61,236 bases of DNA, filler included, from Hausera hauseri (GCA_046269625.1; 11 parts of 11 records of this genome joined end to end with filler, not necessarily neighbours in it); one strand, 5' to 3'. Shown: positions 5,497 to 45,821, counted from the whole stretch's first letter. Translations and numbers: made by a program. The notes: a model not told the origin generated them from the sequence alone.

Positions 5497-6526
5497 CAAC
5501 TGCCTCTAGCCTCAATTAATAAATGTCTTCCTGGTTCAAAATTTAAGAAATTGCTGCTTACACATGAGCGTAAGTCCAAGTATGTTGTTCAATATCGCCT
5601 CTTACAGTTGTACATCGAGTTAGGAGCTGTAGCTGAAAAGGTTCATAGCGCTGTTGAGTTTGACCAGGGTTTTCTTTAAGGATTACATCGATCTAAAGAC
5701 TGCAAAAAGGGCTGCGGCGAAAAATCCTTTCGAGAAAGATTTCTTTAAGCTGAAGAACAACAGTTTGTATGGAAAAACAGTTGAAAACCTTCTGAAAAGG
5801 TCAAACGTAAGACTATGTAATAATGCTAAGGAGCTTATTACTTACGCTAACAAGGCACAGTTTAAATAGAGCATTATAATCGCAGATGATCTGGTTGCCG
5901 TTCTTCTGGATAAAGACATGGTAACATTAGATAGACCCTCATACATTGGTCAGGCCGGACTTGATTTTTCTAAGTTGCGCATGTATGAGTTGCATTATAT
6001 CTAGTTGGAGTCTTATAGGCAAGAGTTTAATTGTCAACCTAATATTATTGCTAGTAATACAGACAGCTCTTTCATCGAATTCCGCGGTGTTGATTTGCGA
6101 TCACAGCTCCTGCCAGCAATGATAACTAATGAACAGTTGGACACTTCAAACTATGATAAAAGTGATCTGCTGTACTCCACTCGCTTCGCTTCTGTCGTAG
6201 GCAAATTTAATGATGAGAGTAAGGGCTGTGTCCAGTATCAGGACGAGATTTTCCTACGGCCGAAATCATATGCATTGAAAACTGAAAGCAAATCAATCCT
6301 TAAATGCAAATGAATCAATTTGAAACAGACTGACTTACAGTTCGACAGCTATTTACAAGCATACAAAACCGGTTGATCGACTATGGTGGACCAGTAGCGA
6401 ATTGGGACAGAAAATTATCAGTTGATGACAATACAAAAAAGGAAGAAAGCACTGGACCCGTTTGACGATAAAAGGCAGTGGATTGACAAAAACAAAAATG
6501 TCGCATATGGATATTATTGTATATGA
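5497..6526 (+). pseudogene. Polinton/Maverick protein-primed DNA polymerase B, C-terminal part (disrupted)
   Basis: KNPFEKDFFKLKNNSLYGKTVEN, NTDS (motif C, degenerate), GKFNDE, LRPKSY, ALDPFDDKR; several stops and frameshifts. Confidence 0.9.
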
Positions 6527-6648
6527 TTGTTGTATATATTTTGTGTAAATAAATATTTCATTCTTTACTGTGTTTGTTTTATTAATAAGGTTTTTTAATC
6601 AAATACGTTTCATTTATACTGTTTTGTGAACATTTATAACATACAAAG

Positions 6649-7250
6649 TGTCAGTAGTTGAAGGTGGGCCCTATCCAACACCAAACTATAACGATTGCAA
6701 ATTGAAGTTTATTTATAATTTAGCAGGTAAGTTCTAACGTTCTCGTTAGAAGTTTTGCACTATTTTAGATGTTTGTACTGCGTGTTGTGCCTTGCGTAAT
6801 TTATAAATTCTCGACTTAGCTAGTTTAATTCAAGTTTAACCTTAGTGTCGTACTAATCCCTCGTAAGGAGCGACGGAAACTATAAGGAAGTTTAATACAG
6901 TTTATTCAACAAAAAAGGAAAATAAATACCGAATAATAACAACTGAATATCGACACAGTAATTAATCAATAAGCAAGTCCGAATACAGTTTCTTTCGCTG
7001 ATTAACAGATTTGATTTTCAGATTTTAATTACATCTGACATGCTATACATCATGCTACAGCTTATATAGTTGCTTGTAAACAACATCGACTGAGAGGGAA
7101 TTATCTTTAAATTCTTTTTAGATTAATTTTGATTTGCTACGATTTTATCTGTTTCTTCGCATGCAATTTTTCCATTAAATTTTTGTGTATTTAGAGTGGA
7201 TTTAATAAACTGATTGATTTTCAACTTAAAATTGGCAGTAATCCAGTTTC
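6649..7250 (-). mobile_element. 3' LTR of cargo-carrying Gypsy-type element (copy A); inner boundary approximate
   Basis: Starts TGT on + (ends ACA on -). Minus-strand TATATAA near 7062-7068 and AATAAA at 6901-6906. Colinear similarity to 28788-29417. Confidence 0.7.
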
Positions 7251-7296
7251 GGTTTCCACTTTCATTTTCAATTTCTAATTTCGATTTCACTTTCGA

Positions 7297-7800
7297 TTAT
7301 CTATTATTTACAATTTGTACATGACGACTCTTAGTCGCTCTTTTTAGAACATTTTTCCTCCCTGAACGGCACTCGGATGTGCCCATTGCGTCAGAAGAGG
7401 TTCCGCGCAATCGGTTCATTCGTCCGCGTAAGTCCGCTTCTGAATCCGATTCGTCTGGTGGCGATTGTAAGTCAAAGTGGTAGGATGTAGTGGGTCTTTG
7501 GGGTAGGATCTCCACTATCTTTATATTCTCTCCATTTGCGTAGTATCTCAGTGTTGTAGCCTCGGCTCTACATACTGGACAGGTTGTTTTCCCATTTTTC
7601 AGGGTCCACGTTTTTAGACAGTACCGGCAATATTTGTGATTGCAATATTTGTTGTCCAATACTACGAATTCTTGATAGAGATCCGCATCGCAAACGGGAC
7701 ATTCTTCTTTCTCAGATCCGTCTATGTCCACAAGGTTTTCATACATTTCTATTCTCTCAAATACTAGTCTTTTTTGTCTCAATATAGGTATCTGTATAAT
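7297..7800 (-). CDS. C3HC4 RING finger domain, C-terminus of accessory ORF3 of LTR element copy A
   Basis: CPVC-x13-CNHKYCRYC-x12-CPVCR followed by an acidic then basic tail. Confidence 0.85.
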   Translation of the reverse strand: MIQIPILRQKRLVFERIEMYENLVDIDGSEKEECPVCDADLYQEFVVLDNKYCNHKYCRYCLKTWTLKNGKTTCPVCRAEATTLRYYANGENIKIVEILPQRPTTSYHFDLQSPPDESDSEADLRGRMNRLRGTSSDAMGTSECRSGRKNVLKRATKSRHVQIVNNR

Positions 7801-9727
7801 CTTTTTTTATTTGAGTTTATAGAACTTTTCTTAGGATCGTCTGATACCGTGACCAATGTCCATTCGACTATTTTTTGTTTATCCAAATCCGGTATTCCAG
7901 TTTTTCGTATTGCCTTTTAGTTGAATTCTAACTTGGGCATCTACAGGAATTGTCAATCTGTTAGTACCATTCTTTGACTAAAATATTGGAGCTAGGTATC
8001 TGCCAATAGTGGTATCTTCCCTGGCACATCTATTTCCACTTACTATCCTTCTCGGAACGGTGGATACATAAGATACAGCTTCTTTGATCTTATCCTAGCT
8101 ATAATATTCGGCTATGAAAAGCATTCATTTGTATTCTTTTACTTGACCGAATTCCGTAACTATAATTGGGGTATTTTCTTCCCAGTTCTTCCGAAGAACG
8201 TAAACTTCCGTCTTTATAGATCTGGGCTTGGTAATTTTCAACTGATTTTCGTTGTTCTCTTTTGTTTCTCGTTGGTTCTATATTTCTTTTTGATTATTCG
8301 CTTGTTCATTCGGGATTAGGCTGTCTGCTGCTGATCTGTTTTCGTCCATTTAGTTTTTACTGGTTTTGCTCTTCTTTCTACTTATATATCCCAGGAAGGA
8401 AGTTTTCGTCTTTTGTCTTCTTGGATTTTCTGAGTTACTTAATTTTACGGTTATTCCTTCTTGAGCCTTATTGGTCGATGACTTCTGTCGGCTGTTCGGG
8501 GCTTCTATTGGATTATTATGGACTGTTACTCGAAATCGGTTATGTTCTTGGGGCTCGACTTGTCTATAGCTCGGGTATTCACTAAACCATTTTCAGAATT
8601 TTTGTATCAGTACCTTTGGGTTGTTGTCGGATATCGCATTCTGCATGGGGTTTTTGGGTTTCCACTCGTGTTCCCGTCGTAATGAGTCATAGATTTTCTT
8701 TATAAATCTTGTCTGTTGACTTGCCGATATAAGTTTAGGGAATTTAAATCGTTCGCCATTCGTGGCTTTTAGCCTCATTTTAAATTGTGATTCGCATGAT
8801 GCTGACGGAAGCAGGCATCCTCTTTTCCTCATCAACGTGTTTTCTACTTGACTCACAACCGTTGGATTTCGACTCAGTTCCCGAATTCCAGCTATATACT
8901 CTTGTCGAATTCCTAGCCGTTCTAACGCTTTGTGCACTCGGAATCCGGCAACAATGTACCCATATAAACAATGGCTTATATCTTCCTGGATTTCTAAGAA
9001 ATCTTTTCCTTTTTCGAGATGTACTTTTGTAATCCCTGTAACGTCGGGAAAGGTATCTTTTACCCTAGCTCGAGGCGCGATTATTTTGTTTATAAGTTCT
9101 TCCCCGTTCGTATTTCTGATAGAGACCTCAATAGGAGTATACCATCCATCATCCTTTTCTCCGTAGTTTACGGCTATTATCCTAGTGTTCCTGCCGTCTA
9201 GAACTAATCTGTAAGACTCTCCATTTTGCTCTATTTCGTCTTCTGATGGCTTTTGTATATATAGTAACGGTGGTATTGGCTTCATCACTTCTGTTCGCCA
9301 GGTCATTTCAATTGTGATTTTCGTCGGAAGTTCAGGGGCTATAGCAACATAGTTTATAATTATTAAATTTCCATTGTTGCCCCTTTTGTGTATTCCGGGA
9401 TTGTCCTACGATCCTGTGTTGAATTTCTTCACCAGCGACATGTATGTACAACTGCTGATGTGTCGGCTCATATGGAATCATATTTCTTAAAAGGCATGCC
9501 CGTGCATCCTCTGGATTCCGCATTGCATATAACAGAACCAGTCGATTTTCCTCTAAACCCCATTTTAACCCAATCGGTATTTTACTTTCCTGATTGAATT
9601 TTAAGTAGGTTTTGTTTTTCAGATTTTCTCAAATTTTTTCTAAGACAGATCATCGTTTTGAAGCAAAATATTTTCTCTGTCTGATGATAGGATAACCTGA
9701 TGTGTAATTGTCAGGTTTTGCTATCAT
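7297..9727 (-). pseudogene. Accessory ORF3 of LTR element copy A: N-domain, inactive DEDDh exonuclease fold, Lys-rich linker, unknown domain, RING (frameshifted)
   Basis: ORF 8593-9306 has IIAVNYGE..EVSIRN..GEELINKII.P...VKD....VTGIT..HL..GKDF.EIQ..I...L.GYIVAG, the REXO4/ISG20 layout. Peptide blocks are colinear with copy B (34702-36731). Confidence 0.75.
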
Positions 9728-11030
9728 AAAGTCCGTCTCTGCGCCCTTTTCCCCGTTTATCTCCCTTTAGATTTTTATCGCGTTTATTACAATTTTTGGA
9801 AACTAGAAAAATCGTCGCCGTTAATATAATAAGAACGAAAATTAACAAACTTAATATAGCTATTGTCGGTAATTTGTTTTCCTCAATAGAATTATTCGTA
9901 GTGAACGCACTTTGGGTAGTAATACCCTTATATTGCATTACTTCAATTTTGTTGTCTAGAGTTCGCACTGTATAAGTTTTAGGATTCTTACCCCTTGCAA
10001 TGATTCTGATTATATAGTTATGTAGCGGTCGTAAGTATAGTCATTCGGTTTCCGGACTATTCTTTCTTAAGACTACGATTTGATTGGTGTGCATGGTGCG
10101 ACATTCGATTTTGACGTCGTAAATTAACGTTTCCTCAACGTAAAATAGGATTTTGTTCCTTTTTGCCAAGACCTTAAACGGTATACTCCCTAGTTCTTTC
10201 TCGAGCAGTTCCTCCGAAGTGACGATCGCAGTAGTTAGAGTTGTACTCGGAACAGTGGACGGTTTCCCCGTAGTGGTTGGAAACGAAAGCTTCCATATTC
10301 CGATTTTGTGACGGTATCCCATTAAGTAAGTGCTTTGTTCGCCGGGATATGTATTGTACAAATTGAGTTGCAATTGATACTTCTGTCCTAGTTGCAATTC
10401 ACAACACACAGTAGGTCGCCGTCGGGCTAGATAACAGTACTCAGGGATAGGAGTCGAAGTAATTAGTGATACAAATCGGACGGGAATTTGTCTGTCTCCT
10501 CGTAGTTCTAACTTGGTTTTAATACGAATACATCAGTTCTTAAAGTCCTTATAAATTCCAATGATGTTGTAGTCTAAGAGTCTTTTAAATGGGTCAGTAT
10601 TTTGAATTATCTCCTCTGTTTTGGCTTGGCTTGTGTCCTTTTGTTGAGGCATTCTTATCAAAAAATCAGTAATGATATAGGCTTGGGCTCCAAGCTGATT
10701 GTAATAAAACATTTGAAACCTGTATCGGTAGGTTTGTCCGAAGTCCAAATCGCAACATTTCCTATGAATTTCATACGGAAAATCGCATGTTCTTATCGTG
10801 GATTTAGTTGCAAATATTATTTAAAATTTCACATGGTTCTGAATATGTCCACTTGCTTCGAACCACGCACATGGTTTGCTCTAATCCATATCGTACACTC
10901 TAATTGATTGCAAGTTTTGGATATCCTTTCGTCTTGCCGCATACTGTAATTTTTCGGTTTGAGTTATCGACTTCACCTTCGGTACATACGAAGCGATTAA
11001 CAATAAGGCGAAAATTATTTGCACGTATGA
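9711..11030 (-). pseudogene. Env-position type I membrane protein with three FN3-like domains (copy A)
   Basis: Signal-like YVQIIFALLLIASYVPKVKS; repeats CCDLDFGQTYRYRF, CCELQLGQKYQLQL, LRPLHNYIIRIIA; Thr-rich linker; TM ILSLLIFVLIILTATIFLV; basic tail. Confidence 0.7.
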
Positions 11031-11802
11031 TATCGGTCTCGCCGTTATGGACGATGTTTTTTTTTCTCTGTCCGTATATTCCGATTTCGCTCTGCTAGAA
11101 CGTAGATTGTCGCGTTTACTTGGTTTTATCTCGGTTTCAACTACTCTCTGAATCGATATGACCTCTTCCTTGCCATTTTTATTTATATAAACTGCGGTCG
11201 GTGTAGTTTTGGTATCTTCATACGGCCCTCTACTGGTTCTGCTAAGTTTGAGAGATGTGACTTTCTTGGTCACTGGATAGTGTACGTAAACTCAATTTCC
11301 TGGTTCTAGGTTGTGTGATTTAGCATTCTTGTCGTATTGCTTCTTAAATTGTTCCTGGTATTGTTTAGATAATTTCTTGGCTATTTCCAACACTTGTGTA
11401 ATCTCAGTTGTAATACCTCGACAAAATTCTGCTCCAATTCCTCCGTTTTTGTGGTCTAGGCAATTAATCCTAAATCTGTAGGCAGTACAGCTTCTCTGCC
11501 GTATATCATAAAAATGGAGTGAATCCTGTCGCAGGATTTGGGGTAGTGTTAATGGCAAACTGTGTACCTTCTAAGAACTCGTTCCAATCTTTCTGGTCTT
11601 TTGCGACTACTGTCTATAAGATTCGTGTAACTGTCGCGTTCATCCGTTCAACCATTCTATTACATAGGGGGTGATAAGCTATGGTAGTTAGTCGTTCAAT
11701 TTCGAAAATTTTGGTAATTTTATCAAACAATTAGCTCGTAAAGTTTCTCCCTCGGTCTGTTAAAATTTGTTCGGGCGGTCCGTATCTGCAAATAATCGTC
11801 CG
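11031..11802 (-). pseudogene. Gypsy-type integrase core and GPY/F region (copy A)
   Basis: ICRYGPPEQILTDRG, AYHP..NRMVERMNATV, FAINTT, GPYE; near-colinear with 32570-33270. Confidence 0.9.
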
Positions 11803-24927: not shown

Positions 24928-25446
24928 CTATCGAAAGGAGTTGAGATACCCTTCGGACAGTTCGGGAAATATATAAAACAGATGAATACTCGTAATTGGT
25001 TTAAAAACGGCATTGCCAAAGCATTCCAATCTTTCTTTCCCGAACCTACCCGATCGTGTTATATGTCGATAAGGAATATGCGACGTTGCATTTACTATTT
25101 TACTCAAACCTTTCTTTCTGAGAGATCGATAGAGGTGTAGTTTGTCGCCGTATTCAATGTGTATTAATCCACAAGTAGTCATTGTGTTCTGAAAATGATC
25201 GGGGTTCGTTCCATAATTTGTGTTGCGATAAGATGGATGAGTCAATGCTTGATGCAACAATGGTTTGTCTTTAATCATGTACTTCAATCTCTCCTCAAGT
25301 TCCGAGAGGGAAAAATAAAAGCGTACATGACATAAAACACTTGGAATTAGTATGGCAAATTGTACAATATCGGTATAACGTCCTGTCTTAAAGAAAGGAT
25401 CGGAACGGATTTCGGGGTAAATCCGTGACGTTGGATTACGTTCATT
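24928..25446 (-). pseudogene. DROSHA: Intronless fragment of Drosha (connector and RNase IIIa region), non-vertebrate-like
   Basis: Open frame ...FFKTGRYTDIVQFAILIP...LLHQALTHPSY...NYGTNPDH...TCGL...YGD...RKKGL...ERLECFGNAV...TSIHLFYIFPELSEG vs Drosha LAMTHPS..NFGMNPDH..CGI..YGD..RKKGI..ERLEFLGDAV..TSVHLYYLFP.LEEG. Confidence 0.9.
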
Positions 25447-25861
25447 TCAAAATTTTCAATCAGTCTTGCAAGAGGTTTGAGAATCGGAGCCATGAAATAA
25501 GAATTTTCATTATTAGTCACATCTTTGATAATTGTGTCAAGATAGACAATAATAAAGGCAATCTCTTCATTATTCATTACTTTGCTGAGTCCCATAATTA
25601 TTTGATGGAGGCAGGCACTGACGGCGGCAAATATTTTGGTATTGTTATTGGAGCATAGATTTGTTCAGTTCCCGCTAATTCAAGTATGGGAGAGACTTTA
25701 TTTATGACTTTTGTAGAATTAAAGGGATGAACAATTACGTAGGTACTTAGGGTCGTGATAGNNNNNNNNNNNNNNNNNNNNNNNNNNNNNNNNNNNNNNN
25801 NNNNNTTAATTAATTAANNNNNNNNNNNNNNNNNNNNNNNNNNNNNNNNNNNNNNNNNNNN

Positions 25862-27392: not shown

Positions 27393-27669
27393 CTTACTTT
27401 GCACAATAAACTATAAATACCATTCCGATGCTCTTTCAGACATTACTGCCATGGAATGCGACGATGAAACGATACTACGCAATGGTGACAGTGATGAGAG
27501 TTCAGATTAGTCATGGTTGTTTGGTGGCGAGAAAGATAATTCCAATGTCGAACTTCTGGAACCGAAAACAGAACCTGTCCAGCAATCGGCAAAGCCGTTA
27601 CTAAAACGGCAAGGGGTTGACAGTGGGATACGCAAACCAAAATTAAAGCCATTGGGCAATGCAATGGGA

Positions 27670-27804
27670 CAAATCGTATTTCTGTGAAGAGGCGGAATTC
27701 AGTGCAGTGTTACAGGAAGAGTGGGGATTGTTTTCTGTCAATGAAATACGAAATGAATGCAAAGAATTTGGTTTCGGTGATATGGACAAAACCACTTACG
27801 TTTA
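27670..27804 (+). pseudogene. dut: dUTPase C-terminal remnant
   Basis: CEEAEFS...IRNECKEFGFGDMDKTTYV* is nearly identical to the end of the dUTPase at 58837-59308. Confidence 0.7.
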
Positions 27805-27867
27805 ATTATACTAATAATAATTTCTTTAGTGTTATAAACAAAAATCGATTTTGTACGTAAACTAATA

Positions 27868-28320
27868 ATGGCGATTGGTTTTATAGATATTGAAGCTTTC
27901 CAAGACGACAATGCTCTTTACCTGATAAAGGACGTTTGTAACATTTTCAAATCACTTATGTACGTTTTCAAGCCATACGTTATGTGGAAACAGTTTACAG
28001 AAAGGGCGAAAATTACTAATGGATTTCTCATACGACATCGTAATGTAATTTATTGGTATGAAGGCAATTCAAACTTTTGCGTATCATGTATCATGATTGA
28101 CATTTGTGATCGTTTTGAAATCCAAAATACAATGTTTTACGTTAACGATCAAATTAAGGTTCAAAAGTTTGCGCAACTACACTCACAATTTGCCGACTTT
28201 CGAATGACGACGTATTCAACATCGAACAACTCAACAATGGTGGCGGTACCTGACAATATTCTAGGTCCATATCGTAAACATGAGCCGCATTGCGCGTACC
28301 GAAAATGTTTATCGCTGTAA
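27868..28320 (+). CDS. Polinton uncharacterised protein with N-terminal DxE (DEDD exonuclease-like) motif and C-terminal H..HCA..C
   Basis: 150-aa ORF MAIGFIDIEAFQ..YLIKD; homologs at 12784 and 59382; TATAAA at 27833. Confidence 0.7.
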   Translation: MAIGFIDIEAFQDDNALYLIKDVCNIFKSLMYVFKPYVMWKQFTERAKITNGFLIRHRNVIYWYEGNSNFCVSCIMIDICDRFEIQNTMFYVNDQIKVQKFAQLHSQFADFRMTTYSTSNNSTMVAVPDNILGPYRKHEPHCAYRKCLSL

Positions 28321-28402
28321 ATAAGGTCCATGACATATTTGGCCGTATTGATCGTCGAATTGTTCAAAACTATAACTAAAAGTAGTTTATAATAATAATA
28401 TT

Positions 28403-28600
28403 CATGGAAATAGTAGATCAGTTAAGCAATTGCAAAAAAATGGATTATCAACCAGTACTTGATAGTGATTTGGTTGTAAGAGCAGCAGATTTTTGACTTA
28501 AAGCAGATTTGGTGTCAATAGCATTGATGACAACAACAACAGATTGTAGCTCAATGGTAAATCTTATTATTATGGTAAATCAAATGTACATTCACCGATT
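28403..28600 (+). pseudogene. 5' remnant of the Polinton RING-protein gene (homolog of 59985-60200)
   Basis: Nucleotide similarity (atggaaatag...caattgcaaa...tagcattgatgaca...aatcaaatgta.attcaccg) to 59985-60200, in the same gene order. Confidence 0.65.
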
Positions 28601-28787
28601 TTATTTGTTATGAATAACCCAGATTTGCAGTAAAATTCATTTTCTTGTGAGTGTGCTGTTTATTATTCAACATTTTACGAATGAAATTTACAAACTGCTC
28701 TAATTTGTTAGAAACAAGAATATTCAAAGTAACGATAGTTGTTAGTACACCATAAATGAATTTCCACATCATAAATACCAGTAATAT

Positions 28788-29417
28788 TGTTACGGTTAGG
28801 GTGGCCCTTATCCGTCCCCCACTATAACAATATTATCTCTAATTTATGAATCGCTCTTTAAGCAGGTTAGGATTACTCGTTCTCGAGTAATCTGCTTGTG
28901 CCCTAGTATTTTAGAATAATTTAGATCTCAATGCAGGTACTGCGTGCGTTTGTGAATGTCTCAAGTTATAGATTTCTTGTCTTATCTATTTAAATTTTCA
29001 CTGGATTTTAAAACTAGGGTAGTGCAAATCAGCTTTAAGAGCCGATGAAAAACTATATGATTTTATCACACAAAAACAATGGATAATAACCTTTATTGAA
29101 TCACGCACCAAATGAATACTTCAAGTAGCACAATAGTCAACAGAATATATAGTCAATTATCAACTGTACTCAAGACTGACTGTAGCGATATCTAAGTCGC
29201 AATCACTGTCGATTTTCCAAAATAAAATGCGATACTAAGTCGCAGAAAAACTGTTCGATTCAACTGTTTCAACGTCTGCTTATATACTGTTCATATACAC
29301 CGATAATCTACATGTTTGTCTTTTTTCGGATTTTCTCACATAATTATATTTACATTTTAGATTTATATCTCTATATGTTAATTCCGACACCTACAAATAA
29401 ATAAAGTTCTTATAACA
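28788..29417 (-). mobile_element. Solo LTR related to the cargo Gypsy element
   Basis: TGTTA...TAACA termini; flanks AATAT/ATTAT (5-bp TSD with 1 mismatch); blocks homologous to 6649-7070; minus-strand TATA near 29280 and AATAAA at 29092. Confidence 0.7.
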
Positions 29418-30884: not shown

Positions 30885-31873
30885 TTAGGGCGTTGAAAAG
30901 TTTCCGGACACTTATACAAAAAGTATATTTTAAAAATCCCCTTGTCTTCCAGAAAATTCTATATCTTTTGTTTTAATGAATCGATTACATCCTTAATTAA
31001 TACGCAAGTATATGCCGCTGCGGCCATTGTTTATTCATTTTACAATATTGCAATGTGATGAAAAAATTGCAGTTCGAGTTTTATTGCGTCACTATTTGAA
31101 AAGGGCTCAGCACAAGAGCCGCAGCCGAGAAAGTTTGTGCAGTGGAAGGTGGTTCAAGCGTTTTAATGAAGGTGACACAAGTCTCGAAGACAAAACTCAC
31201 TCCGGACACCAATCCAGAGTGCACAACGAAGCGCTGCTACAAGCATTGAAAAACTAGCTAGCCGGCAGTACACGCAGATTGTCGGTAAAACTTGGCTCTT
31301 ATTATTCCACTAATGATCGTCATCTCCAACAACTTGAGTTCCACAGCAGACGCTGTCGAAAAATTCCATAGGCGCAACGTTGTATGGACATCTGTCAACA
31401 TCTCATTGTCAATCCTCAGGACACCCGATTCTGGAAACGAGTTGTGACTGTGGATGAAAAATGAATTTCTTTAAGCAATCTCTGCAAGAATAATCAATAG
31501 TTTATGCCCAGCCAACCAGAAGTCCCGGTTGTTTGAAGAGGGCAATTTGAAAACGTTATTCTATGGGTACGGTGGAATTTTGAGGGAGTACTGCACTTCT
31601 AATTTGTTCGAGAGGGTCATGAAATAAATGCTAACCTCTATTCTGAACAGCTGCAACGAGTTTATGAAGTTTTGCGAACGTGCTACCCTGACTTGATCAG
31701 TCGGAAGCGGATACTTTTCCTGCATAAAAACACCTCAGCGCACACCTCAAAGGCTTGCCGACATTGAAGTCCTCTTTCATACAGTCCGGACCTCACACCA
31801 TCTAAGTATTGCTTGTTCCGGTCGATAGCTGACTTTCTTCGAGGACGCCAGTTTGAGAATGTCGAGGAAGTGG
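30885..31873 (+). mobile_element. Mariner (Tc1/mariner, DD34D-type) transposon, decayed, cut by the contig end
   Basis: TA then putative 5' TIR ttagggcgttgaaaagtttccgg; WFKRFNEGDTSLED..SG, VVTVDEK*, LHKNTSAH, YSPDLTPS motifs. Confidence 0.88.
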
Positions 31874-31975: not shown

Positions 31976-33273
31976 TTGACACTAAATAAAACAATCAAAA
32001 TTTCTGCCGAACAAGCCAAAGATAAAGTTATCCAACAAATAGTCAAATTTTCCGAGCAAGATGAGATACCAAAAGGACGTCAACTAAAGAAACACTTACA
32101 GAGACACGGACATAAATATTATTTATCAAATCCGGATAATATTTTATATTATGAACGCAAAGGATGGAAACTGGTTGTTATTCCAAAAGGATTACGCACA
32201 GAAGTACTAATGGCCAAACATGATTCACATCTAGCCGGACATATGTCATGGGAGAAAACATTAGAGTGTATACTGAATAAGTATTACTGGCCAAGCGTTT
32301 ATATCGATGTGAAAAATTGGGTGGACGCTTGTGAATGCTGCGCAACAAAACAAAGAAAAGTGAAAAACTATATAGCAGAATTAAAACCTATCGACGTACC
32401 AGACAGATCTATGCAAGCTACGTCTATGAATATAGTAGGATCTTTACCTACAACTCATAAAAATAACAAATATATTTTGACATGCGTAGATCGTTTAACA
32501 CACTTTGTGGAATTAATCTCATTAATCGATCAAAAAGCAGAAACATTAGCAGACGCAGTAGTAAGGAAAATCATCTGCAGATATGGACCGCCCGATCAAA
32601 TACTAACCGATAGAGGAAGAAGTTTTACGAGTGAGTTATTTGACAAAATTTCTAAAATCTTTGACATCGAACGATTAACTACTACCGCATATCACCCTTA
32701 GTGCAATGGGATGGTCGAGCGTATGAACGCAACAGTTATACGAGTCTTATCGACCGTAGTAGCGAAGGATGAAAAAGACTGGGATGAATTTTTAGAAGGA
32801 ACACAATTCGCTATCAATACTACTCCACATCCCGCCACAGGATTTACACCATTTTTTATGATGTATGGACGCGAAGCGATTTTACCTACGGACTTAGGGA
32901 TGACTCCGTATCACGCAAATCTAGAAGATTTAGAACCAAATTTTGCGGAAGTTTAGCAAATAAGATTACAAAAATATTGGGATATGGCGAAAACGCTCAC
33001 GCTTGAGTATCAAGAACAGTTTAAAAAACAATATTATAGAAAGCCAAACCTCACGATTTATAAAAATGAAACTGGGTCTATGTACACTACCCAGGTGCAA
33101 AGAAAGGCACCTCATTAAAATTTACTCGTACTGGACTAGGGCCTTACGAAGTTATTCGAACCACACCAACTACTGCCTACATTAATAAAAATGGTAAAGA
33201 AGAGGTATTATCCATACAGAGAATTGTTAAAACAGAAATAAAACCAGAAAAACGTTACAATCTGCGATCTAGC
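31976..33273 (+). pseudogene. Gypsy-type integrase (HHCC, DDE, GPY/F) of cargo LTR element copy B
   Basis: HDSHLAGH...CECC zinc finger, ILTDRG, MVERMN, GFTPFFMMYGRE, GPYEV; two stops. Confidence 0.93.
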
Positions 33274-34718
33274 TTGAATCAAGATAAAAAGAAAACGAAA
33301 ACGTCCTCTATAATTAGCGGACCAATATCTTACGTACAGATAATATTAGCATTATCGCTAATTGCCTCCTATATCCCGAGAACACAAGCTAAATGGTGGT
33401 ACGACAGTTACGGAGTTCGAAAAAGTGGAGCAAGATCGGAGGTTATTAAAACGGAAAAGAAATCAACAGTCAAAGGAAATCAAAGACAAGAAAATATAAG
33501 ATTATTACAAGCAATAATGATCCACTATTACTCGCCTAACTCTACATGCGTTGGATTGAAAACACGGAAACAACACCGAAATTCTGGAAGGATCCAAATT
33601 GTCTTAGATGATGTAATAACAAAAGAAGCAAAGAATTGTGATTTTGAGCCCGGAGAACGTACACAATGTTGCAATACGGATTTCGTACACACTTACAACT
33701 TTACCTCTCGACTATACGTACCGAAATGATCTAAAATCTTGAAATAAAACCACAATTCCAATTGGTCATCCCTGCATGGAACAGGCATCGTGGAATAAAA
33801 CCCAACAAAATGCTCAAGTCCGTCGACCCAGTAAATGGATGCTGGAAAAAAATATTGCCAGTATAACAGAAAACGCAAAGGACAGTTGTGTTCAAATAAA
33901 AACAAAAGGACGATTAATTAACGGTCGAGTAATCACGGTCCAATTCCTGAAAGAGAACATACCAGCTGACAACCAACAGTACTGCCAAATCGATGTCGAG
34001 CAACCGAAAATATGTTGCAAGTTACCCCAGAAATATAAATAAGATTCGGTTAAACTTATATGAAGTTAGATCAAACCAGTCGGGTATTTATCTAGGAATC
34101 TACCAATTTAGAAGTCCAATCGAGCAAAATTCACTTCGGACGACAACGAATACGGAAACAAAATCTACTACTCCTGCACTTATCAAAAGCACTCCAACGG
34201 ATAGATCATCTCAGAATGATCTAAAAATAATCCCTGTAAAATATTGGGCACAACAACGCGAAATAACGTTCATTGTGGAGGAAACACTTAACTACGACGT
34301 AGAAATAAGCTGCCGAACATTACACGATAATCGGAAGGTAACACTGCCAAAAGGCAGCTACCGAATCAAATGTATCGGATTGAAACTCAAAACAGATTAT
34401 ATAATACAAATGGGTGCAGAGAACAAACAAGGTTCAGTGTTAACAATACGGACCTTAAAAGAGATTGTCGTAACGAAACCACTGACTGATGAGAAAGCAG
34501 AGGATGGGACTACGACTACCGCCAAAATGGAAAATTTAACTAAATGGACAGCGTTGTCATTAACATCGATTACTGGAACGTCAGTATTTGCTTTCATAAT
34601 TTTAATTGCGTTTTGTCGATTGGTTACCAAAAACTGTTGTACCAAGCGTCATAAAATCACCGAGAGGGAGTTAAGGGTGGTGGTACCGCAGGATGGAATC
34701 AATGATGGAATAACCTGA
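33274..34718 (+). pseudogene. Env-position type I membrane protein with three FN3-like domains (copy B), in frame with the integrase C-terminus
   Basis: YVQIILALSLIASYIPRTQA signal-like segment; two C..C..CC domains; GLKLKTDYIIQMGAENKQG FN3 signature; TM SVFAFIILIAF; colinear with copy A. Confidence 0.72.
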
Positions 34719-36731
34719 CAACTACAGATTGGGTTATTCCACCATCAAACAAATAATTGGTTCAGATTTAGAACAATACTTTGTTTTAGGACTGACCCTT
34801 ATTTTTTATTTTCTTTCAGAATGGTAAGTATGATCAGCCGAATTAGAGTCGACGAATTCCTACAAGGATACGCAACGGTCTTCATTCCCAAACCGAAAGC
34901 CATATACAGAAGGATAAATGACCCATTACAAACAGAAACATACGTCGAATACCGGAAAGTAAACGAAATACCAAATGACTTGAAGGATACCACCGAATAG
35001 AACCGCACAATTTTCCTATACGCGATGCGCAAAAACAATCAAGCTAAGTCATATAGCCTTAAGGAAATGATCCAGAATAGGATCGCCCAAGTGGAAGATA
35101 TATTTATCCATCTAGCTAATGACGAAGTGTACTATAGAATAGAAAATCAACGATGGAACTGTAATAAATGGCGCCAATACCGATTTAGTACATTCAAAAT
35201 AAGCGGACAAGGCCTAAAAAGTATCGATTATGACCTAGAATTTACATAGAGAAAACTGCAACTTAGGCTTGCCAGTTCTAGAATTCAAACAAATCCCAAC
35301 CTAAACGGAGAAAGACGAACATTACCAGTCATATAGGCTAGTACAGGATGTCGTAATACAAGAATTATGGCGATAAATTGTGGCAGAGGAGACGATGCGT
35401 ATGGGATACCTATCAAAGTATCTATTAGAGAAAGAGATGAAACTGAGCTTTACTCTACCATTATAAACCCCAGGAAACATGTTCAAGAATGATATGCGGA
35501 AGTAACTGGTTTACGAAAGGAACAACTTATAAGCGGAAAAGACATTCAATAGGTCCATTCTGAGTTAGACCATTGCCTCTACGGGTGTATGATAACGGGA
35601 TACAACGTAAAACGGGAAACCGAGCTATTAGGGATATCCGATACAAATATTGCCGGACTTAGGGAAATAGCTACTCACCCAATGGTTCAGAAACAAATGG
35701 AAAAGACCGTACAAGGAAGAAATAGGCCGACTACACCAGAAGCCTTCTTCAACCTGATGATCGAATCAATGAATAATAATTCGGGCAGAATTCCCAGACT
35801 TCTGACGACCAGCCAACGCTCCAAAAATTTGCAGGAAATTTATAAGACATTAAAATGGGAACATGAATGGGCCCTACAAGCCCTACATACAATTTACGTA
35901 GTTCCTTGAAATCTGAACAGATAGACCTCAAATATAGAAAAAACATCAAGCCCTATTTCCCGGTCAGGACTGTCCAGCCAACAGACAAACATAGTCTCAG
36001 GATTACCGTACCAGAACCAAGGGGAGAACAAGGAAGTAAAACGAAATTACGGAGGATCAAAGAAAAAGATAAGACATTAGAGGGAACATCAAAGTCTCCG
36101 GAAGAACAAAGAGACGAACCAAGGCCAGAAATAATAATTAAAAAGATGAAGTTGGAAGAGAAACCCCAGCCCAGGAAGACTTTATCCATTTATAATTATC
36201 TATTCAAGAAGAAAAGGGAAGATAAAGAACAAAAAGTAGAAAACCAACAAAACAGGCCAAGTATCGCACAGAAGATAGAACCATTGAAAAAGGGAATTAA
36301 GAGTCCCATAATAATGGAAATTAATGCCCTAATAGGAAAAAGAAAAAAAGGGGACGTGCATTGCAGAACAGCCCAAGATTTTCCTAGAATGCTGGTAACT
36401 ACTGAATATTATAGTAAAAAGACGATAAAAGAAGCTATGTTTTTCATCAAAATTGCCCCAGCAAGAGAAGTCTTTGAAGATACCTATGTATTGGAAAATA
36501 CTAAACTGGAAACTTATCTTACATCAATTTTTGGTTCAAAGAGGACCAAAAAAATAGTAGTTCCTGTGGATAAACAAATTCGAATATTGTTAAAGAAACT
36601 ATCAAAAATATAAAATAGAAGGAAAGATTCCTGACCTAGACAAGGATCTTATCAAGGATTGGACTTTGATACAAGTGAACTGTGACTCACGTAAAAGTTC
36701 AATTAACCCTAAACAAAAGGTAATTCACGGA
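34702..36731 (+). pseudogene. Accessory ORF3 of LTR element copy B (inactive DEDDh fold, Lys-rich linker, conserved unknown domain); cut by the contig end just before the RING
   Basis: RIMAINCG..IKVSIR..LYSTIINP..VTGL..GKD..HCLYG..IAGLREI..EHEW; EYYS..IKEA..YL..IF..PVD.Q.RI.LK..IPDLDK..WTL..KSSIN shared with copy A. Confidence 0.75.
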
Positions 36732-36831: not shown

Positions 36832-36908
36832 TTTTTCACTGACCTAGCCTTGAAAACACACCCTTTTTACTGACTACCCAAAAAAGGTACCCCTTTTTCA
36901 CTGACGAA
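36832..36908 (+). repeat. Exact 77-bp direct repeat at both ends of the contig (second copy 47516-47592)
   Basis: Base-by-base identity of the first and last 77 nt of the contig. Confidence 0.95.
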
Positions 36909-37044
36909 CTGTACGAAAACACCTCTTCAATTATCACACATATTTTGCATTGCATTTATTTTTCTATTACTTGTTTTAAACATTGTATTTCACTGACCTT
37001 GGAGTTATGTGACCTAATGTGTAACTGAAGCAAGACTTATAAGA

Positions 37045-37330
37045 TCCATCCATCCATAACCCAATTCTTTCTTTCGGGGTCATAGGGGTCACTGGTGTTT
37101 ATATCCAGCAGTCTGTGTGAGAGGCAGGGGGTACCATGGACAGGTCGCAAATCCATCACAGGGACATAAAGACAAACAAGACACTCTCTCACTTAAACCT
37201 AGGGACTATTTAAGACTTACCAATTAACCTAACCTAACCAAACAGTCGTGTTTTGGTCTATGGAAAGAAACCGGATTACCTGGAGAAAACCTACATATGC
37301 AGAGAGAACGTGCAAACTCTCCCCAGAGAG
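37045..37330 (-). mobile_element. Fish SINE (V-SINE/Mermaid-like), degenerate
   Basis: catccatccat tail, ggacaggtcgc..atccatcacaggg and ggaagaaaccgga.tacctggagaaaacc.aca motifs typical of this family. Confidence 0.65.
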
Positions 37331-37599
37331 CTCCCCTAATAGGTTAAAATGTGAATACACAGGGATTGATAATACATATTGTTTATAGAAGGACAGTAAT
37401 AAGTAATGCAATAAGTAACAATACAACTGCATTAAAAAGTTTCAATACACATCCCAACCTTTATTGGTGTATATTACAAGATATAGGAAACTGAAATGGA
37501 GTGTGGGTCAGGATGCTTAATATTTATTCTATTATCTTTACTGATTATTACTTTATTCTGTTCTTTAACTCTTTCTATACTTTTATTTGCTCTGTTCTT

Positions 37600-38200
37600 T
37601 CCCATATGAAACCAAATACAAATAAACAACTAAAAAACTTAAATAAATAAAATAAACAAACATATATATAACTTAAATAAATAAATAGTATTCTATAATC
37701 ATATTCTGTTTATTACGTTTGTTTTTAAAAAAAATCTAATTAAGTTAATACTTTTGCTTCCTGAATCTCTTTGTAGTAAATTTATTAAATTGAATGTTTC
37801 TTTAATGGTTCTGAATGCTTCCATCATCGCTCTCCTTTCTCTCTCATATCTTTTACATATTAATATTACATGTTCTATGGTTTCTGTCATTCCACAATGT
37901 TGGCAATTTCCATTTTCATGTTTCATGTAGTGTGCTGTTAAGTCCAGTGTGCCCCAATCTCAATCTTGTTATTAAACTCTCTTCCTTTCTGTTTCTCCCA
38001 GTTACTCTCCTTTCTCCCACTCTCCTTTGGATCTTATAAAACCATCTTCCTTTATTTTCTTTGTTCCATTCTTTTTGCCACTTTTCTTTCAGTTTTTGTT
38101 CGACTAAACTTTTTGCCTCAGATTTACTCGTATTTATTGTAAAGTTGATTAGACCTGTTGTTGCCCTTTTTGCTACTCTGTCTGCTGCTTTTCCCTCCAG
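37600..38200 (-). mobile_element. 3' end of an I/Nimb-clade LINE (RNase H end and CCHC knuckle)
   Basis: ADRVAK, KWQKEW, ITRLRLGHTGLN, CQHCGMTETIEHVILIC; A-rich (TAAA)n tract beyond the ORF end. Confidence 0.8.
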
Positions 38201-38527
38201 CCCACTGTCTACTTGCTCATGAAGATAGCCAATCACAGAAGAGAAAATGTCCAAGCTTGGCCAATCAGAAGTGAGAACACAAATAATGTTGAAACACTGT
38301 TGGAATCAACTGGAGGGGAATTTACTTGCAATGCATCAATACAGCACAGCCAGATAGAAGCTCAAGTATAAAAAGATACCCCTTTTTCATTGAAATGGTG
38401 GAAATACTCCCCCTAAACGCTGACCCACGTGGGTCCATGCTTGTGTATAAAAGACCCCCCTTTCCCGTGATTTTTTGTATGCGGTTGGTACCACTGGCTG
38501 CCTGAGTCCCCCCCCCCACAGACTGAA

Positions 38528-39110
38528 CATCCATCCATCCATCCATCCATCCATTATCTTCTTCTTTATCCAAAGTTGAGTCACAGGGGCAGCAGCTTGA
38601 GCACAAAAGCCCAGACATCTCTTCCAGCTCTTCTGGAAGGACTCCAAGGTAATCCCGGGCCAGATGTCCAGTGTGTCCTGGGTTTTCCTCGGGGTCTTAT
38701 CCCAGTTGGACAAGCCTGAAACACCTCCCTACGGAGGTGTCCAGGAGGCCTCCTTACCAGATGCCTGGACCAACTCAACTGGCTCCTCTGGAAAATAATT
38801 TGTTATATATTTTATTTTGGTTCATGACAGGCCCAGCCTAAAATCACCACTGGTCCACCGGGCAAGTGCCCGCTGTGCCCGCTGTGCCCAATGGGCAGTC
38901 CAGTGCTGACTGGATTAGAAAACTCCCATCACCCCTCAAGGACCCTAGCGGTGGTTAAGAGTTGGTCCAGTGTTCCACATCGAGGACAGAACCTGCATTC
39001 TTCCTCCAGAATCTGAGTTTCAACTATTGATCTCACTCTCTTCTCAGTATCCCTGCAAAGACCTTACTGGGGAGGCTAAGAAGAGTGATGCCCCTGTAAT
39101 TGGTCATTCT
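38528..39110 (-). mobile_element. Expander/Rex3 (RTE clade) LINE fragments with (GGAT)n tail
   Basis: (catc)n tail; LVRRPPGHLRREVFQACPTGIRPRGKPRTHW C-terminus; internal fragment near 38945-39110. Confidence 0.75.
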
Positions 39111-39114
39111 CCAC

Positions 39115-39460
39115 CAGCTTGGGAGGTGGTCCCCACTCTGACCTTGGGGTCTCCAGTTCTGCACAGATGTTTCTGTACACTATACAAGCCACCTGGTTAT
39201 GGCATTCCATCTATTACCTTCATGCTAGTATTTTTCACCCTGCTGTGAGATGCTGGATTGTTTCTGGGGCTATTTTATACAGTCTGCACCTGGGATCTTG
39301 CCTGGTATTGTAGATCTGATCCTCTATTACTCTGGTGCTCAAAACCTGGTCCCGTGCTGCCATGATCATTGTTTCTGTGCTGTCCATCAGTCTGGCCCTC
39401 TCTAGCCATTGGTAGGATTTGGTCATATTAGTCACTTCATCTATCTGTGGTACATCCCAC
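39115..39460 (-). mobile_element. R4/Dong (Rex6-like) non-LTR retrotransposon fragment
   Basis: KSYQWLE..L.DSTE..IMAA.DQ.LSTR...DPRCRL...PETIQHLTAG. Confidence 0.75.
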
Positions 39461-40289
39461 GCATTTTTCCTCCTGTGACCAGCAGGTGGAGCTCTTTTTA
39501 AAAGGCACCTGAACACAGACTGACCGTGCACAATATTTTTTATTAACAATTCTCTTAAAACAGTTCTTTTAAAAGCATGGCTTCAGGCCTACTACTTGGT
39601 CCTAAGAAAGAAAAATGAAACAAGTGGAGAGAGACCGACAAGTTCAATTGTTCCCAAAAACAAAACCTGCAAAGTAAAACAAGCAAATTAATGAAGAAAA
39701 CCAAAATGGAAAAATCAAGCAAATTAGTAATTACAATAATAAACAAAACAAGCTGTAAAAATAAACCACGGCAAATAATGGAACAAATTGTTGTCGTGGT
39801 CCAGTTCCAAATGCCATTCAATGGGGCCAGAGGAGTAATGCCCCGCCCACACAGGAACCGGCTTCGATGATGCGGCCCAAAACAAACTGCAAGACAAGAC
39901 AGCAGAGCGTCCCGAACGCTCCAACTCCCAAAACAGTAAAAATCCGGTGCCTGAAACAGAAAAACCATTAACCGTGGATCAAGACAAATAAATCAAACGC
40001 TAAATAATAGGGGGCTTACCCAGGGGTGGTGACACAGCCTAACCCGGGAGGGAGCGGGTCAGCAGGCGAAGACTAGGCGAAAGACGCAGGCCACAACAAC
40101 CTCCAGCCGCAGCCGGCAACGCCAGCAAAGCAACGCTGCAGAAACGCGCGACAGGTGTAGCACCCAAAAACCAACCATGACCCCAGTCACTGATGGCAAA
40201 ACCGGCACTTACGATCTCAGATGAGCCGATCAGGAACACAAGCTGACATGTAGCAGTCGATTGTCGCAGCAGCGGGAGAAACAGAGACA

Positions 40290-43200: not shown

Positions 43201-43800
43201 GGAGTGTTGTCTGTAGTCTACAAAAAGACTAAGGCACCTTTTAAACTGATAGAAGTGTCGTACCCTTCAGAGGTACTGGCTTTAGACTTCCTCTCTTTGT
43301 GTCGGCCGGGCGACACTTATCAAAATATTTTAGTGATGACTGACATGTTCACTTCTTATTCATTGGCCATCACCACTGATGATCAAACTGCTCAAACCAC
43401 TGTCTTATGGTCTTGGTTTCATGTCATTCAACCGTTTTGCTGCCCAGAATGTTTTTATTCTGACCAGGAACCTGATTTTGTATTTTGAAGTAATGAAAGT
43501 TCTATGTAGCTTGTATGGCATTTCTAAAAGCCACACTATTTCATATCCCCCCTGCAATGGGAGAGTAGAAAGAATGAACCTAACACTAATAAACATGCTT
43601 CACACACTTGAGGTTGAGGAACAGAGTAGGTGGCCAGAGCAGAGTTGTTGCATGCTTATTATAATGTCCACAGTGCTACTGGGTTTGCACCATCTTACTT
43701 CAGGTTTGATCGTCATCTTAGGCTCCCAGTCGATCTTAGCTAGGTGTTTTCGACACACAGCCTTGCCAAGACTTGCAGGGATGGGTCTTAGAAGGTTTTA
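40290..43800 (+). mobile_element. Highly decayed fish Gypsy element (gag zinc knuckle, RNase H, integrase) with nested insertions
   Basis: CRVCRNPGHIAQFC; FTDASHHGLGAVLAQ; YSSFKLKLLALKWAIT; EVLALDF..ILVMTDMFT; NGRVERMN. Confidence 0.8.
42591..43000 (+). mobile_element. Solo LTR (410 bp) with 5-bp TSD GGTTC, nested in the Gypsy remnant
   Basis: GGTTC|TGTGAGG...CCTTAACA|GGTTC; internal AATAAA near 42928. Confidence 0.85.
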
Positions 43801-44460
43801 ACATCCAGATCTTATCTTAAATAGATGTACAACATCAAGTCTCCAATCCTTTTCATCTTTAAATGTTTTGAAACCTTGTTGCTTGTCTTTGTTATTTTAC
43901 TGTATTAGTCATAATTCCTCATCTTTGAGTATTTTGGCCTGAGATAAAGATTCACTGTTACATCTTACGACCATCAGCCCCCTTTAGAAAAATCCTCCAA
44001 AATTAGGGTGTATTCACACAAGGAAAGTCCTTTGGTCCGCTTGTTTGGTCCAGGCCAAAAATGGACTTTCTTTTTTTCGTTTGGTGCGGTTTGCATTCAC
44101 ATCGTACTTTCTCGCAACCGAACTATAACTTGATATCTAAGCCACGATGGTGACGATCATTGCTCCCATTGGACAGAAAGGACGGGGGCGGGACAGTGCT
44201 CACAGACCCAGAATAACACATGGAATTTCTGCATGCTGCAGTTCTGATGTGCAAATTTGTGCTGTTAGAACACCCACAATACCATTTAAAATGTCAAAAG
44301 CAGCTAATTTAACAGTGGCTTTTCTATATACCTCCTGGTGAAAGAGGAGCTGGTAAAGTCAGACCAAAGCCTTCTACTTCAGTTTTATAAAGACCCCAAC
44401 TGAATGATTTAAGTGTGAAATGAAGGATTTAAAACATCATATGTCTACTTCAATAATAAA

Positions 44461-45785: not shown

Positions 45786-45821
45786 ACATGTTGGTCACAC
45801 CTTCAGTCAGAGACAGGAACC

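Follow-up and report, generated by a model that had tools for sequence, protein, structure and literature searches.

A candidate readthrough stop between a surface-protein gene and a pseudo-exonuclease-RING gene in a Ty3/gypsy-type retrotransposon lineage

Two diverged copies of one retroelement are present in the stretch of DNA analysed here (the window, 61,236 nt of assembly GCA_046269625.1), which consists of 11 contigs joined by N/linker spacer. Copy A lies on the minus strand of contig 2, and copy B, on the plus strand, is contig 7. Both are covered from the integrase onward; gag, protease, RT, RH and 5' LTR lie outside the window. The gene order is integrase, a surface protein (signal, three beta-rich repeats and a transmembrane segment), a pseudo-exonuclease/RING protein (ORF3), polypurine tract and LTR, of which RING, polypurine tract and LTR are seen in copy A only, as copy B ends with its contig before the RING. 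This order, the colinearity of the copies and their coordinates had been claimed in the original prediction and were confirmed by re-examination of both contigs. The features are as follows.

6649..7351, minus, copy A: 3' LTR of 703 bp, TGT...ACA, with TATA box at 7068-7061 and AATAAA at 6906-6901
7352..7363, minus, copy A: polypurine tract, crossed by the last ORF3 codons
7567..7704, minus, copy A: C3HC4 RING finger
7705..8660, minus, copy A: ORF3 linker of charged low-complexity sequence, then a conserved C-terminal domain, no family assigned, with stops and a local frame change
8662..9192, minus, copy A: ORF3 ISG20/REX4-like DEDDh domain, catalytic residues lost
9350..9632, minus, copy A: ORF3 N-terminal domain, no family assigned, 30% identical to copy B and 38% to the relative P0120
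9633..9710, minus, copy A: 26 post-stop codons with coding constraint in the surface frame
9705..9713, minus, copy A: TGA followed by CAATTA (CARYYA), candidate type I readthrough signal
9822..9866, minus, copy A: transmembrane helix, hydropathy 3.25, followed by a basic tail of ~30 aa
9942..10900, minus, copy A: ectodomain of two Cys-bearing duplicated beta-rich repeats, a Ser/Thr linker and a third repeat
10989..11033, minus, copy A: signal-like hydrophobic segment, hydropathy 2.24, kept in copy B, in the integrase frame
11034..11400, minus, copy A: integrase C-terminal region (GPY motif, NLRSS tail) in the surface-protein frame
11509..11802, minus, copy A: integrase core (Pfam rve), 5' part lost to the contig end, two in-frame stops
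28788..29118, minus: 3' half of a related LTR, from alignment to the copy A LTR
31976..33288, plus, copy B: integrase (H2C2, core, GPY, RYNLRSS tail), from Pfam and alignment with copy A
33289..34718, plus, copy B: surface protein in the integrase-tail frame, frame changes near 33730 and 34040, ending with TGA at 34716-34718
34716..34724, plus, copy B: TGA followed by CAACTA (CARYYA), candidate type I readthrough signal
34719..36731, plus, copy B: ORF3, in the surface-protein frame as far as 35870
34790..34829, plus, copy B: candidate splice acceptor for a distinct ORF3 mRNA, with a CTGAC resembling a branch point, a polypyrimidine tract and CAG, followed by an ATG in frame with ORF3 and by GTAAGT

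The integrase is of the Gypsy type, with H2C2, DDE core and GPY/F tail; the GPY motif is present in both copies. Pfam matches are clear for copy B (rve, E 3.5e-12; Integrase_H2C2, E 6.7e-17) and weaker for copy A (rve, E 1e-4), whose C-terminal region gives weak matches to the integrase tails of Pol relatives. These relatives comprise 119 proteins at E<=1e-20, the best being 30-39% identical. A quick tree of the integrase only, with 112 relatives, places copies A and B together on a single long, isolated branch that joins no named clade. RT is absent between integrase and LTR, which excludes the copia order, RT and RH being past the contig ends; copy A shows the polypurine tract and TG...CA LTR of Ty3/gypsy elements. 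Decay is visible in both integrases: in the copy A tail the GPY motif is preceded by one stop, at 11294, and copy B has stops at 32699 and 32954 and a frame change near 33040-33070. A and B are best read as two degraded members of a Ty3/gypsy-type LTR retrotransposon lineage with multiple copies. A solo LTR of the same kind had been suggested at 28788. Its relatedness is borne out by a local score of 99 against the copy A LTR (200 shuffles: mean 36, maximum 61), with ~350 bp of the 3' half aligning over 213/363 columns; its solo status was rejected as unproven, since a search at plausible distances revealed no target-site duplication.

In both copies the frame runs from the integrase into the signal sequence with no stop between them, and one open frame of copy B (33070-33729) covers integrase tail, signal and repeat 1. 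A hydropathy scan of A and B finds a signal-like stretch and one transmembrane segment per copy and no others; the gene is predicted to encode a type I surface protein. It has sequons and conserved cysteines, and the copy A ectodomain is interrupted by stops at 10883, 10823, 10535 and 10043. Three FN3-like repeats had been proposed for this ectodomain. The duplication is sound, repeats 1 and 2 being clear internal duplicates, and the FN3/Ig likeness stands as a lead: Atlas gives the copy B piece an adhesion-type FN3/Ig lead at 0.90 with 166 shared features, a borderline value, with 10/10 best family matches in one clan, and the repeats carry an L-x-x-G-x-x-Y pattern, which we take to resemble the FN3 motif. 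Pfam fn3 does not match the protein, PDB yields no meaningful match, the surface pieces match none of 228 retrieved proteins at E<=1, and a word-based homologue search with the copy A protein, a weak blank confined to near lengths, returned 0/3,896 candidates. The single-sequence fold of the copy B piece has a pLDDT of 38.5, the transmembrane helix being its sole confident part.

ORF3 was said to combine a DEDDh fold with a RING finger, and it does, with the catalytic residues of the nuclease lost. The copy A RING passes the Pfam cut-offs (zf-RING_2, 31.2 bits vs 27.3; zf-C3HC4, 29.1 vs 21), as does that of P0120, an intact natural ORF3 relative of 870 aa (E 4e-108, full HMMER search), whose model has a pLDDT of ~80 over RING residues 743-817. 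The C3HC4 zinc ligands are in place in both, and ORF3 is a putative RING E3 ligase. P0120 and P0121 are the only two whole-ORF3 matches at E<=1e-10 among 1.84 billion representatives, with no cellular homologue; an earlier word-based search with copy A ORF3, limited to near lengths, had returned 0/7,642 candidates. P0120 ends AVQGGEML where copy A reads AVQGGKMF-stop across the polypurine tract, the same junction. Residues 242-417 of P0120 match the ISG20 fold (Foldseek E 4e-9, TM 0.78 of target), a result biased toward ISG20 by REX4-type proteins in the model alignment; sequence-level matches to ISG20L2 and SDN1 (E 0.003-0.04) are independent of the model, and PHROGs add a weak exonuclease match only. 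The Exo I D-x-E reads N-x-G/A in 4/4 family members, P0121 included, and the Exo II and III catalytic residues are replaced in all three members that reach them. With D, E, D, H and D all replaced in A, B and P0120, the domain is, by its sequence, a pseudo-enzyme. A cupin-like barrel, suggested for the N-terminal domain by a motif resemblance, was rejected, with no Pfam or PDB match and an unreliable model in that region.

From signal to the end of ORF3 the cargo measures 3,737 bp, in line with the ~3.7 kb given originally. Protein identity between the copies is 26-38% in the cargo blocks and 84% in the integrase core. Codon positions 1 and 2 are better kept than position 3 in the main reading frames, and pN is 0.38-0.47 against pS of 0.76-0.91 in five cargo blocks, values not turned into a numeric dN/dS since synonymous sites are saturated and blastp-guided alignments favour positions 1 and 2. 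A coding-selection pattern in every cargo block supports past purifying selection. The earlier view that the cargo belongs to the element and was selected is upheld by this pattern, by the many related contigs carrying it in run X1 and by the intact ORF3 relative. Run X1 also contains both long pieces of the fish-like contig 8 as exact matches, so it does not serve to assign the host and may not be independent of the window, and its summed depths are left out as copy numbers. No related loci were found in the viral contigs or JGI metagenomes searched.

CpG o/e is 1.15 and 1.04 in the two copies and 0.22 in a decayed gypsy element of a fish-like contig. Because of this CpG content, the host of the element is likely an invertebrate and not the co-assembled fish. 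The element-bearing contigs in this fish assembly would then probably come from another animal, a warning for such assemblies. The element in contig 5 carries a piece of Drosha, in which Atlas gives no hint of the host.

The surface frame is closed by the same TGA in A (9713) and B (34716), each followed by a CARYYA hexamer; the two hexamers differ only at a Y position. No other listed in-frame stop in the true frames is followed by CARYYA, and over all frames, candidate sites included, it follows 1/270 stop triplets in A and 2/248 in B. Past the stop, 26 codons of A and B can be aligned gap-free, with identity by codon position of 17/22/10 of 26, a bias significant by Fisher (p 0.003) and permutation (p 0.002) tests in a stretch picked after the alignment had been seen; for the 26 codons before the stop the figures are 15/16/11. 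Each of the other two frames meets a stop in at least one copy. In copy B the post-stop frame continues into the N-terminal and exonuclease domains of ORF3. Copy A lacks ~110-130 nt of B after the post-stop codons and changes frame, so it is not continuous into ORF3. The stop is seen directly in two copies only, and their common ancestry makes this one origin of the motif. There is no conserved stem-loop after the stop common to A and B (folding z over 100 nt, -0.74 in A and -2.25 in B; over 140 nt, -0.04 and -0.57); type I readthrough motifs need none. The type I (CARYYA) motif, as defined, stimulates UGA as well as UAG readthrough, and the natural contexts listed for it include UAG-CAA-CUA and UAG-CAA-UUA (PMC3542737). 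A stop, CAR-YYA and a constrained in-frame continuation are all found here, and the surface-gene TGA is likely read through into ORF3. Because the integrase frame extends into the surface gene and one conserved TGA in a readthrough context precedes ORF3, the three parts may be made as one or two fusions, not as three free ORFs.

Copy B also has a strong, textbook acceptor at 34819, ~100 nt past the stop, with an in-frame ATG, so that ORF3 does not need readthrough to be made. A weak CAG in B, at +7 to +9 past the stop, could account for the post-stop constraint via splicing.

We lean towards a Ty3/gypsy lineage in which the integrase frame runs into a type I surface protein whose TGA-CARYYA stop is likely read through into the pseudo-exonuclease-RING part. 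The internal signal would direct the C-terminal portion of Pol to the ER, and cleavage by signal peptidase or by the protease of the element would separate the integrase and the surface protein; the latter may also be made from a spliced RNA. Most ribosomes would stop after the ~30-aa cytoplasmic tail, giving a short, non-fusogenic, adhesin-like surface protein. Readthrough by a minority would yield a protein anchored in the membrane and bearing, on its cytosolic side, an RNA-end-binding pseudo-nuclease and a RING E3; soluble ORF3 would come from splicing at the strong acceptor 100 nt downstream of the TGA. The likeliest role would be to tether element RNA or particles at the membrane and ubiquitinate a nearby target, either to help vesicle-type release and uptake along or to eliminate a host factor of silencing. 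More tentatively, and as a proposal we rather doubt, a fusogenic envelope may have been replaced by a Pol-cut adhesion-type receptor, with a readthrough switch to a membrane-anchored RNA-binding E3 and fusogen-free cell-to-cell spread.

The strong acceptor in copy B (34790-34823), with its branch point, polypyrimidine tract, CAG and in-frame ATG, fits an account to which we give a minority chance. Here the TGA simply ends translation, and a spliced or subgenomic RNA is the sole source of ORF3, a free soluble protein that would act as a cytosolic RNA-binding E3 against host silencing; the post-stop conservation would reflect an acceptor just past the stop or an overlapping RNA signal. P0120 and P0121 keep an F-x-F...VS pattern at the acceptor-equivalent site and a Met just before the conserved core, and ORF3s of LTR elements are typically spliced, according to the available text of one study (PMC5408684). 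This account, however, leaves unexplained the third-position-biased divergence upstream of the strong acceptor (p ~0.002), the exact CARYYA match and the frame of the two intact relatives. Upstream of the acceptor-equivalent position both are open in the surface frame and share residues with the post-stop peptide, and 54 open codons would arise by chance with a probability of ~0.05 each; their called starts lie ~10-15 codons past the expected stop position, which in these protein-level data is inferred.

An unrecognised, possibly fusogenic cell-entry envelope would make the element an errantivirus-like infectious retrovirus. Post-integrase position, signal and transmembrane topology, sequons and conserved cysteines agree with this, yet there are two hydrophobic segments only, no fusion-peptide-like internal stretch exceeds the hydropathy threshold in A or B, the Atlas leads are adhesion-type FN3/Ig proteins, and env genes in a pan-metazoan survey, in the text available, are F-type or gB-type (PMC13524379). 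The surface protein has no Pfam, PDB or PHROG match to an F-type or gB-type fusogen, a test limited by the low-confidence fold, and we consider the envelope reading improbable. Captured host sequence with no function for the element is more improbable still, and already largely refuted: other elements of the assembly do carry host fragments (the Drosha piece of contig 5) and A and B are both now broken, but the coding-selection pattern runs throughout the cargo, the intact 870-aa P0120 ends at the polypurine tract, whole ORF3 has no cellular homologue and the cargo is fused to the integrase frame.

The readthrough reading bears on germ-line entry by fusogen-less LTR elements and on the role of non-envelope third ORFs, for which it offers a concrete, testable design: a Pol-fused adhesion-like surface protein with a recoding switch to a pseudo-nuclease-RING. 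The literature searched contains no case of a retroelement surface protein that is extended by readthrough at its cytoplasmic tail into a receptor-type E3. If real, such readthrough would equip the element with a ubiquitin tagger of its own, anchored in the membrane, where a fusion envelope is the usual equipment. The layout ectodomain, transmembrane segment and cytosolic RING is that of receptor-type RING E3 ligases such as RNF43/ZNRF3. The readthrough product would match this layout, a works-like comparison only: the ZNRF3 RING is a weak match in sequence search, there is no homology outside the RING, and a pseudo-nuclease stands in between.

The literature searched describes no such architecture, Repbase, Dfam and GyDB being outside its scope, and in its accessible text no catalogue of such elements in parasitic flatworms. 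In the main text of the pan-metazoan survey (PMC13524379), as available, the terms fibronectin, RING, readthrough, exonuclease and immunoglobulin each occur 0 times, and the flatworm elements are given as gag-env-pol. Our lineage resembles the metazoan errantiviruses treated there in being Ty3/gypsy with a signal/transmembrane glycoprotein gene, and differs from those with F-type or gB-type env in that its surface protein bears no fusogen likeness. Closer in cargo are the rotifer Juno/Vesta elements, in whose described portion ORF3 is a DEDDy, GDSL or transmembrane protein (PMC5408684). They too are gypsy-type, with a non-envelope ORF after pol and DEDD-family exonuclease and transmembrane proteins. 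As far as that account extends, their nuclease is RNase D-like DEDDy with intact catalytic residues, whereas ours is of the ISG20/REX4-like DEDDh type, has lost its catalytic residues, is joined to a RING and follows a surface gene; no RING or FN3 ORF is named there. The planarian Burro/GYPSM1 are giant gypsy elements with ubiquitin-related and RING-type motifs (PMC6431247, partial text). Burro shares with our lineage the accessory RING-type motifs and a membrane protein in frame inside a polyprotein, while its cargo and fusogen-type env lie, in the text at hand, between gag and pol and ours lies 3' of the integrase, with a surface protein that is no recognised fusogen and a readthrough-type stop splitting the cargo. 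As DEDD-type and RING cargo are thus separately known from the accessible descriptions of Juno/Vesta and Burro, the accessory genes as such are less surprising than first supposed. The nearest parallel for the stop is soybean SIRE1, a Sirevirus which, in the available extracts (PMC2829016; PMC2194720), expresses its env-like gene via stop suppression. Both are LTR retrotransposons with a single in-frame stop ahead of a 3' accessory ORF. According to those extracts SIRE1 is copia-type, from a plant, and has its stop between pol and the env-like ORF, whereas in our lineage pol and the surface gene are joined without a stop and the candidate readthrough stop follows the transmembrane tail.

The window consists of 11 contigs with a spacer between them. 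Two copies of the element, interrupted alike by stops and frame changes, are present in it:

Copy A: contig 2, minus strand
Copy B: fills contig 7, plus strand
3' LTR of copy A: 7351-6649, 703 bp, directly after the polypurine tract

Gag, protease, reverse transcriptase and the 5' LTR are absent from both copies because the contigs end. As in the original prediction, integrase is present in both (Pfam match), the RING of copy A lies above Pfam cut-offs, and a three-frame comparison of A with B finds colinear blocks from integrase to the contig end of B. At 28788, where a solo LTR had been proposed, lies the end of a related LTR (score 99, 200-shuffle maximum 61), but its solo status was not borne out: plausible distances were checked for a target duplication and none was seen. 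Repeated Polinton/Maverick-like DNA adjoins the 3' ends of both LTRs:

5497-6648: next to the copy A LTR, with a decayed B-type polymerase end (read from translation)
27655-28787: next to the 28788 LTR, with a repeat common to contig 11

As n=2 and such DNA is abundant in the window, a preference for it as a target is no more than possible.

The surface protein measures about 440 amino acids from signal to stop and has two hydrophobic segments per copy, one signal-like and one transmembrane (TM). Of the three FN3-like repeats predicted, 1 and 2 are internal duplicates sharing a cysteine pattern, and repeat 3 is more distant. FN3/Ig-like domains are fairly probable: Atlas, a protein-feature search giving leads, points to FN3/Ig adhesion proteins (0.90) for the C-terminal piece of the copy B protein, but Pfam, PDB and single-sequence fold gave no confirmation of FN3. 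In both copies the signal sequence, overlooked in this respect before, is in frame with the integrase tail, so full-length Pol would carry the surface protein, whose release would fall to signal peptidase or to the protease of the element. Pol relatives stop shortly past a similar tail motif.

33070-33729: copy B open frame covering GPY motif, integrase tail, signal and repeat 1
11099-11110, minus strand: copy A integrase-tail Ser-Ser, TCT-AGC
33255-33273, plus strand: copy B integrase-tail Ser-Ser, also TCT-AGC

The conserved TCTAG might serve as a weak splice acceptor, giving a separate mRNA for the surface protein.

Conservation of the coding blocks was compared by codon position, a pattern somewhat inflated by the protein-guided alignment; a numeric dN/dS is withheld for A versus B because synonymous sites are saturated. 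The cargo is almost certainly real.

Identity between copies A and B at codon positions 1/2/3
Integrase core: 0.89/0.96/0.47
Repeat 2: 0.44/0.60/0.33
Repeat 3-TM: 0.52/0.60/0.34
ORF3 N-terminal domain: 0.52/0.64/0.35
Exonuclease-like domain: 0.56/0.67/0.34
Linker and C-terminal domain: 0.51/0.53/0.36

In X1, a sequencing run whose contigs were compared to the window, 22,946 contigs match contig 2 at 80% identity or more over 30 of 30 bins, a count that takes in the Polinton-like flank too (861 at 99% and above, 3,297 at 95-99%, 10,325 at 90-95%, 8,463 below 90%). Several cargo variant sites are each represented by dozens of these contigs (for example 33 at 7743, 53 at 8589, 63 at 9393), other listed sites by as few as 10. 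The cargo is a trait of the element family. A HMMER search with copy A ORF3 gave 109 matches at E<=0.001 and two at E<=1e-10: P0120 (870 aa, E 4e-108, 37% identity, query residues 9-636) and P0121 (333 aa). Each is a singleton; the ENA contigs that encode them are 16,242 and 12,445 bp long, respectively. P0120 runs unbroken from N-terminal domain to RING. Its C-terminal residues match the copy A reading that passes through the polypurine tract and enters the LTR; by this match P0120, too, is very likely encoded at the 3' end of an LTR element. No relatives of the surface protein were found among near-length candidate proteins, fetched Pol/ORF3 relatives or JGI metagenomes. In a quick tree of 112 relatives (7 of 119 matches were excluded as too short), the A and B integrases together make up a single long isolated branch, the closest relatives being 30-39% identical at best. 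A selected, multi-copy cargo in a poorly sampled gypsy-type lineage is real.

The middle domain of ORF3 resembles ISG20L2, SDN1 and ISG20 in sequence, and residues 242-417 of P0120 are predicted to fold like ISG20 (pLDDT about 80; Foldseek E 4e-9), a match not fully independent, the alignment for the model having contained REX4-type rows. Compared with REX4-type proteins, all four family members have N-x-G/A in place of Exo I D-x-E. Three of them extend to Exo II and Exo III, and in each of these three other residues stand where the Exo II aspartate and the Exo III H/D would be. Judged from its residues, the domain is a pseudo-nuclease kept by selection; since catalytic residues are lost yet the domain is selected, its role would be binding rather than cutting. 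The N- and C-terminal domains have no family match in Pfam, PDB or PHROGs. Four ISG20/REX4-like proteins (P0139, P0192, P0225, P0146) have an upstream motif in common with the ORF3 domain; two of them keep Exo I D-x-E and two are degenerate. They are possibly a mobile pool, the source of the pseudo-nuclease.

How ORF3 is expressed can be approached from the end of the surface frame. A and B share the TGA that closes it, and the next six bases are CAATTA in A and CAACTA in B, a feature the original prediction overlooked. Both hexamers fit the type I readthrough consensus, effective on UGA too (PMC3542737), and the hexamer follows 1 of 270 stop triplets in A and 2 of 248 in B, all frames counted. 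The 26 codons past the TGA, a stretch picked after inspection of the alignment, align gaplessly (identity 17/22/10 of 26 by codon position, p about 0.002-0.003); the 26 before it are less constrained (15/16/11). The post-stop frame leads into ORF3 in copy B and is broken by a deletion in copy A. The same frame is open in P0120 and P0121. Both have residues in common with the post-stop peptide; neither reaches beyond the stop position. Against readthrough, no RNA structure shared by A and B was found after the stop, and copy B has a strong splice acceptor and an in-frame ATG 100 nt past it. On these sequence features we marginally favour a readthrough fusion of surface protein with ORF3; the element likely makes both, soluble ORF3 by splicing and, as a minor product, the readthrough fusion.

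34820-34829, plus strand: copy B strong acceptor, four bases (AATG), then a perfect donor-like GTAAGT

Relatives keep V-S at the GTAAGT position, and a start-codon micro-exon here is possible.

The proposed mechanism, for which the steps shown are all at sequence level, would yield three products: the surface protein in a short, non-fusogenic form, a longer form anchored in the membrane with pseudo-nuclease and RING in the cytosol, and soluble ORF3. The long form might tether element RNA or particles to the membrane and ubiquitinate a neighbour, leading to budding or removal of a silencing factor.

As to the host, contigs 1 and 8 resemble fish DNA (CpG observed/expected 0.39 and 0.31; 0.22 for a decayed gypsy inside contig 8), whereas the values for copies A and B, which are equally decayed, are 1.15 and 1.04. 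Further observations concern other contigs:

24931-25664, minus strand: contig 5, intron-free Drosha RNase IIIa fragment (PDB E 3e-27)
36832-47592: fish-like contig 8, exact 77-nt terminal repeat
31000-31873, plus strand: weak HTH match, by motifs presumably a decayed mariner-like transposase

Contig 5 also contains a decayed gypsy gag-pol, with the Drosha fragment and a weak Sec3 match on its upstream side: host-gene capture. The fragment is far from human Drosha, and its CpG content is similar to that of A and B; fish Drosha is near human Drosha in that region. A non-vertebrate host is highly probable. X1 carries relatives of the element as well as exact matches to long pieces of fish-like contig 8, so it does not discriminate between hosts. 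One X1 contig links the end of contig 8 to its start; contig 8 would be a collapsed 10.7-kb tandem unit or circle.

Searches confined to open-access papers found no literature on gypsy elements with a fibronectin type III env-like protein, on gypsy LTR elements with an extra RING finger/exonuclease ORF, or on the full cargo layout. A pan-metazoan survey describes env of F and gB types (PMC13524379); fibronectin, RING, readthrough and exonuclease do not appear in its main text, and its supplements may bear on novelty. Among known systems, rotifer elements have active DEDDy ORF3s (PMC5408684), Burro combines motifs related to RING and ubiquitin with an env that lies in frame between gag and pol (PMC6431247), and in SIRE1 the stop that separates pol from env is suppressed (cited in PMC2829016, PMC2194720).
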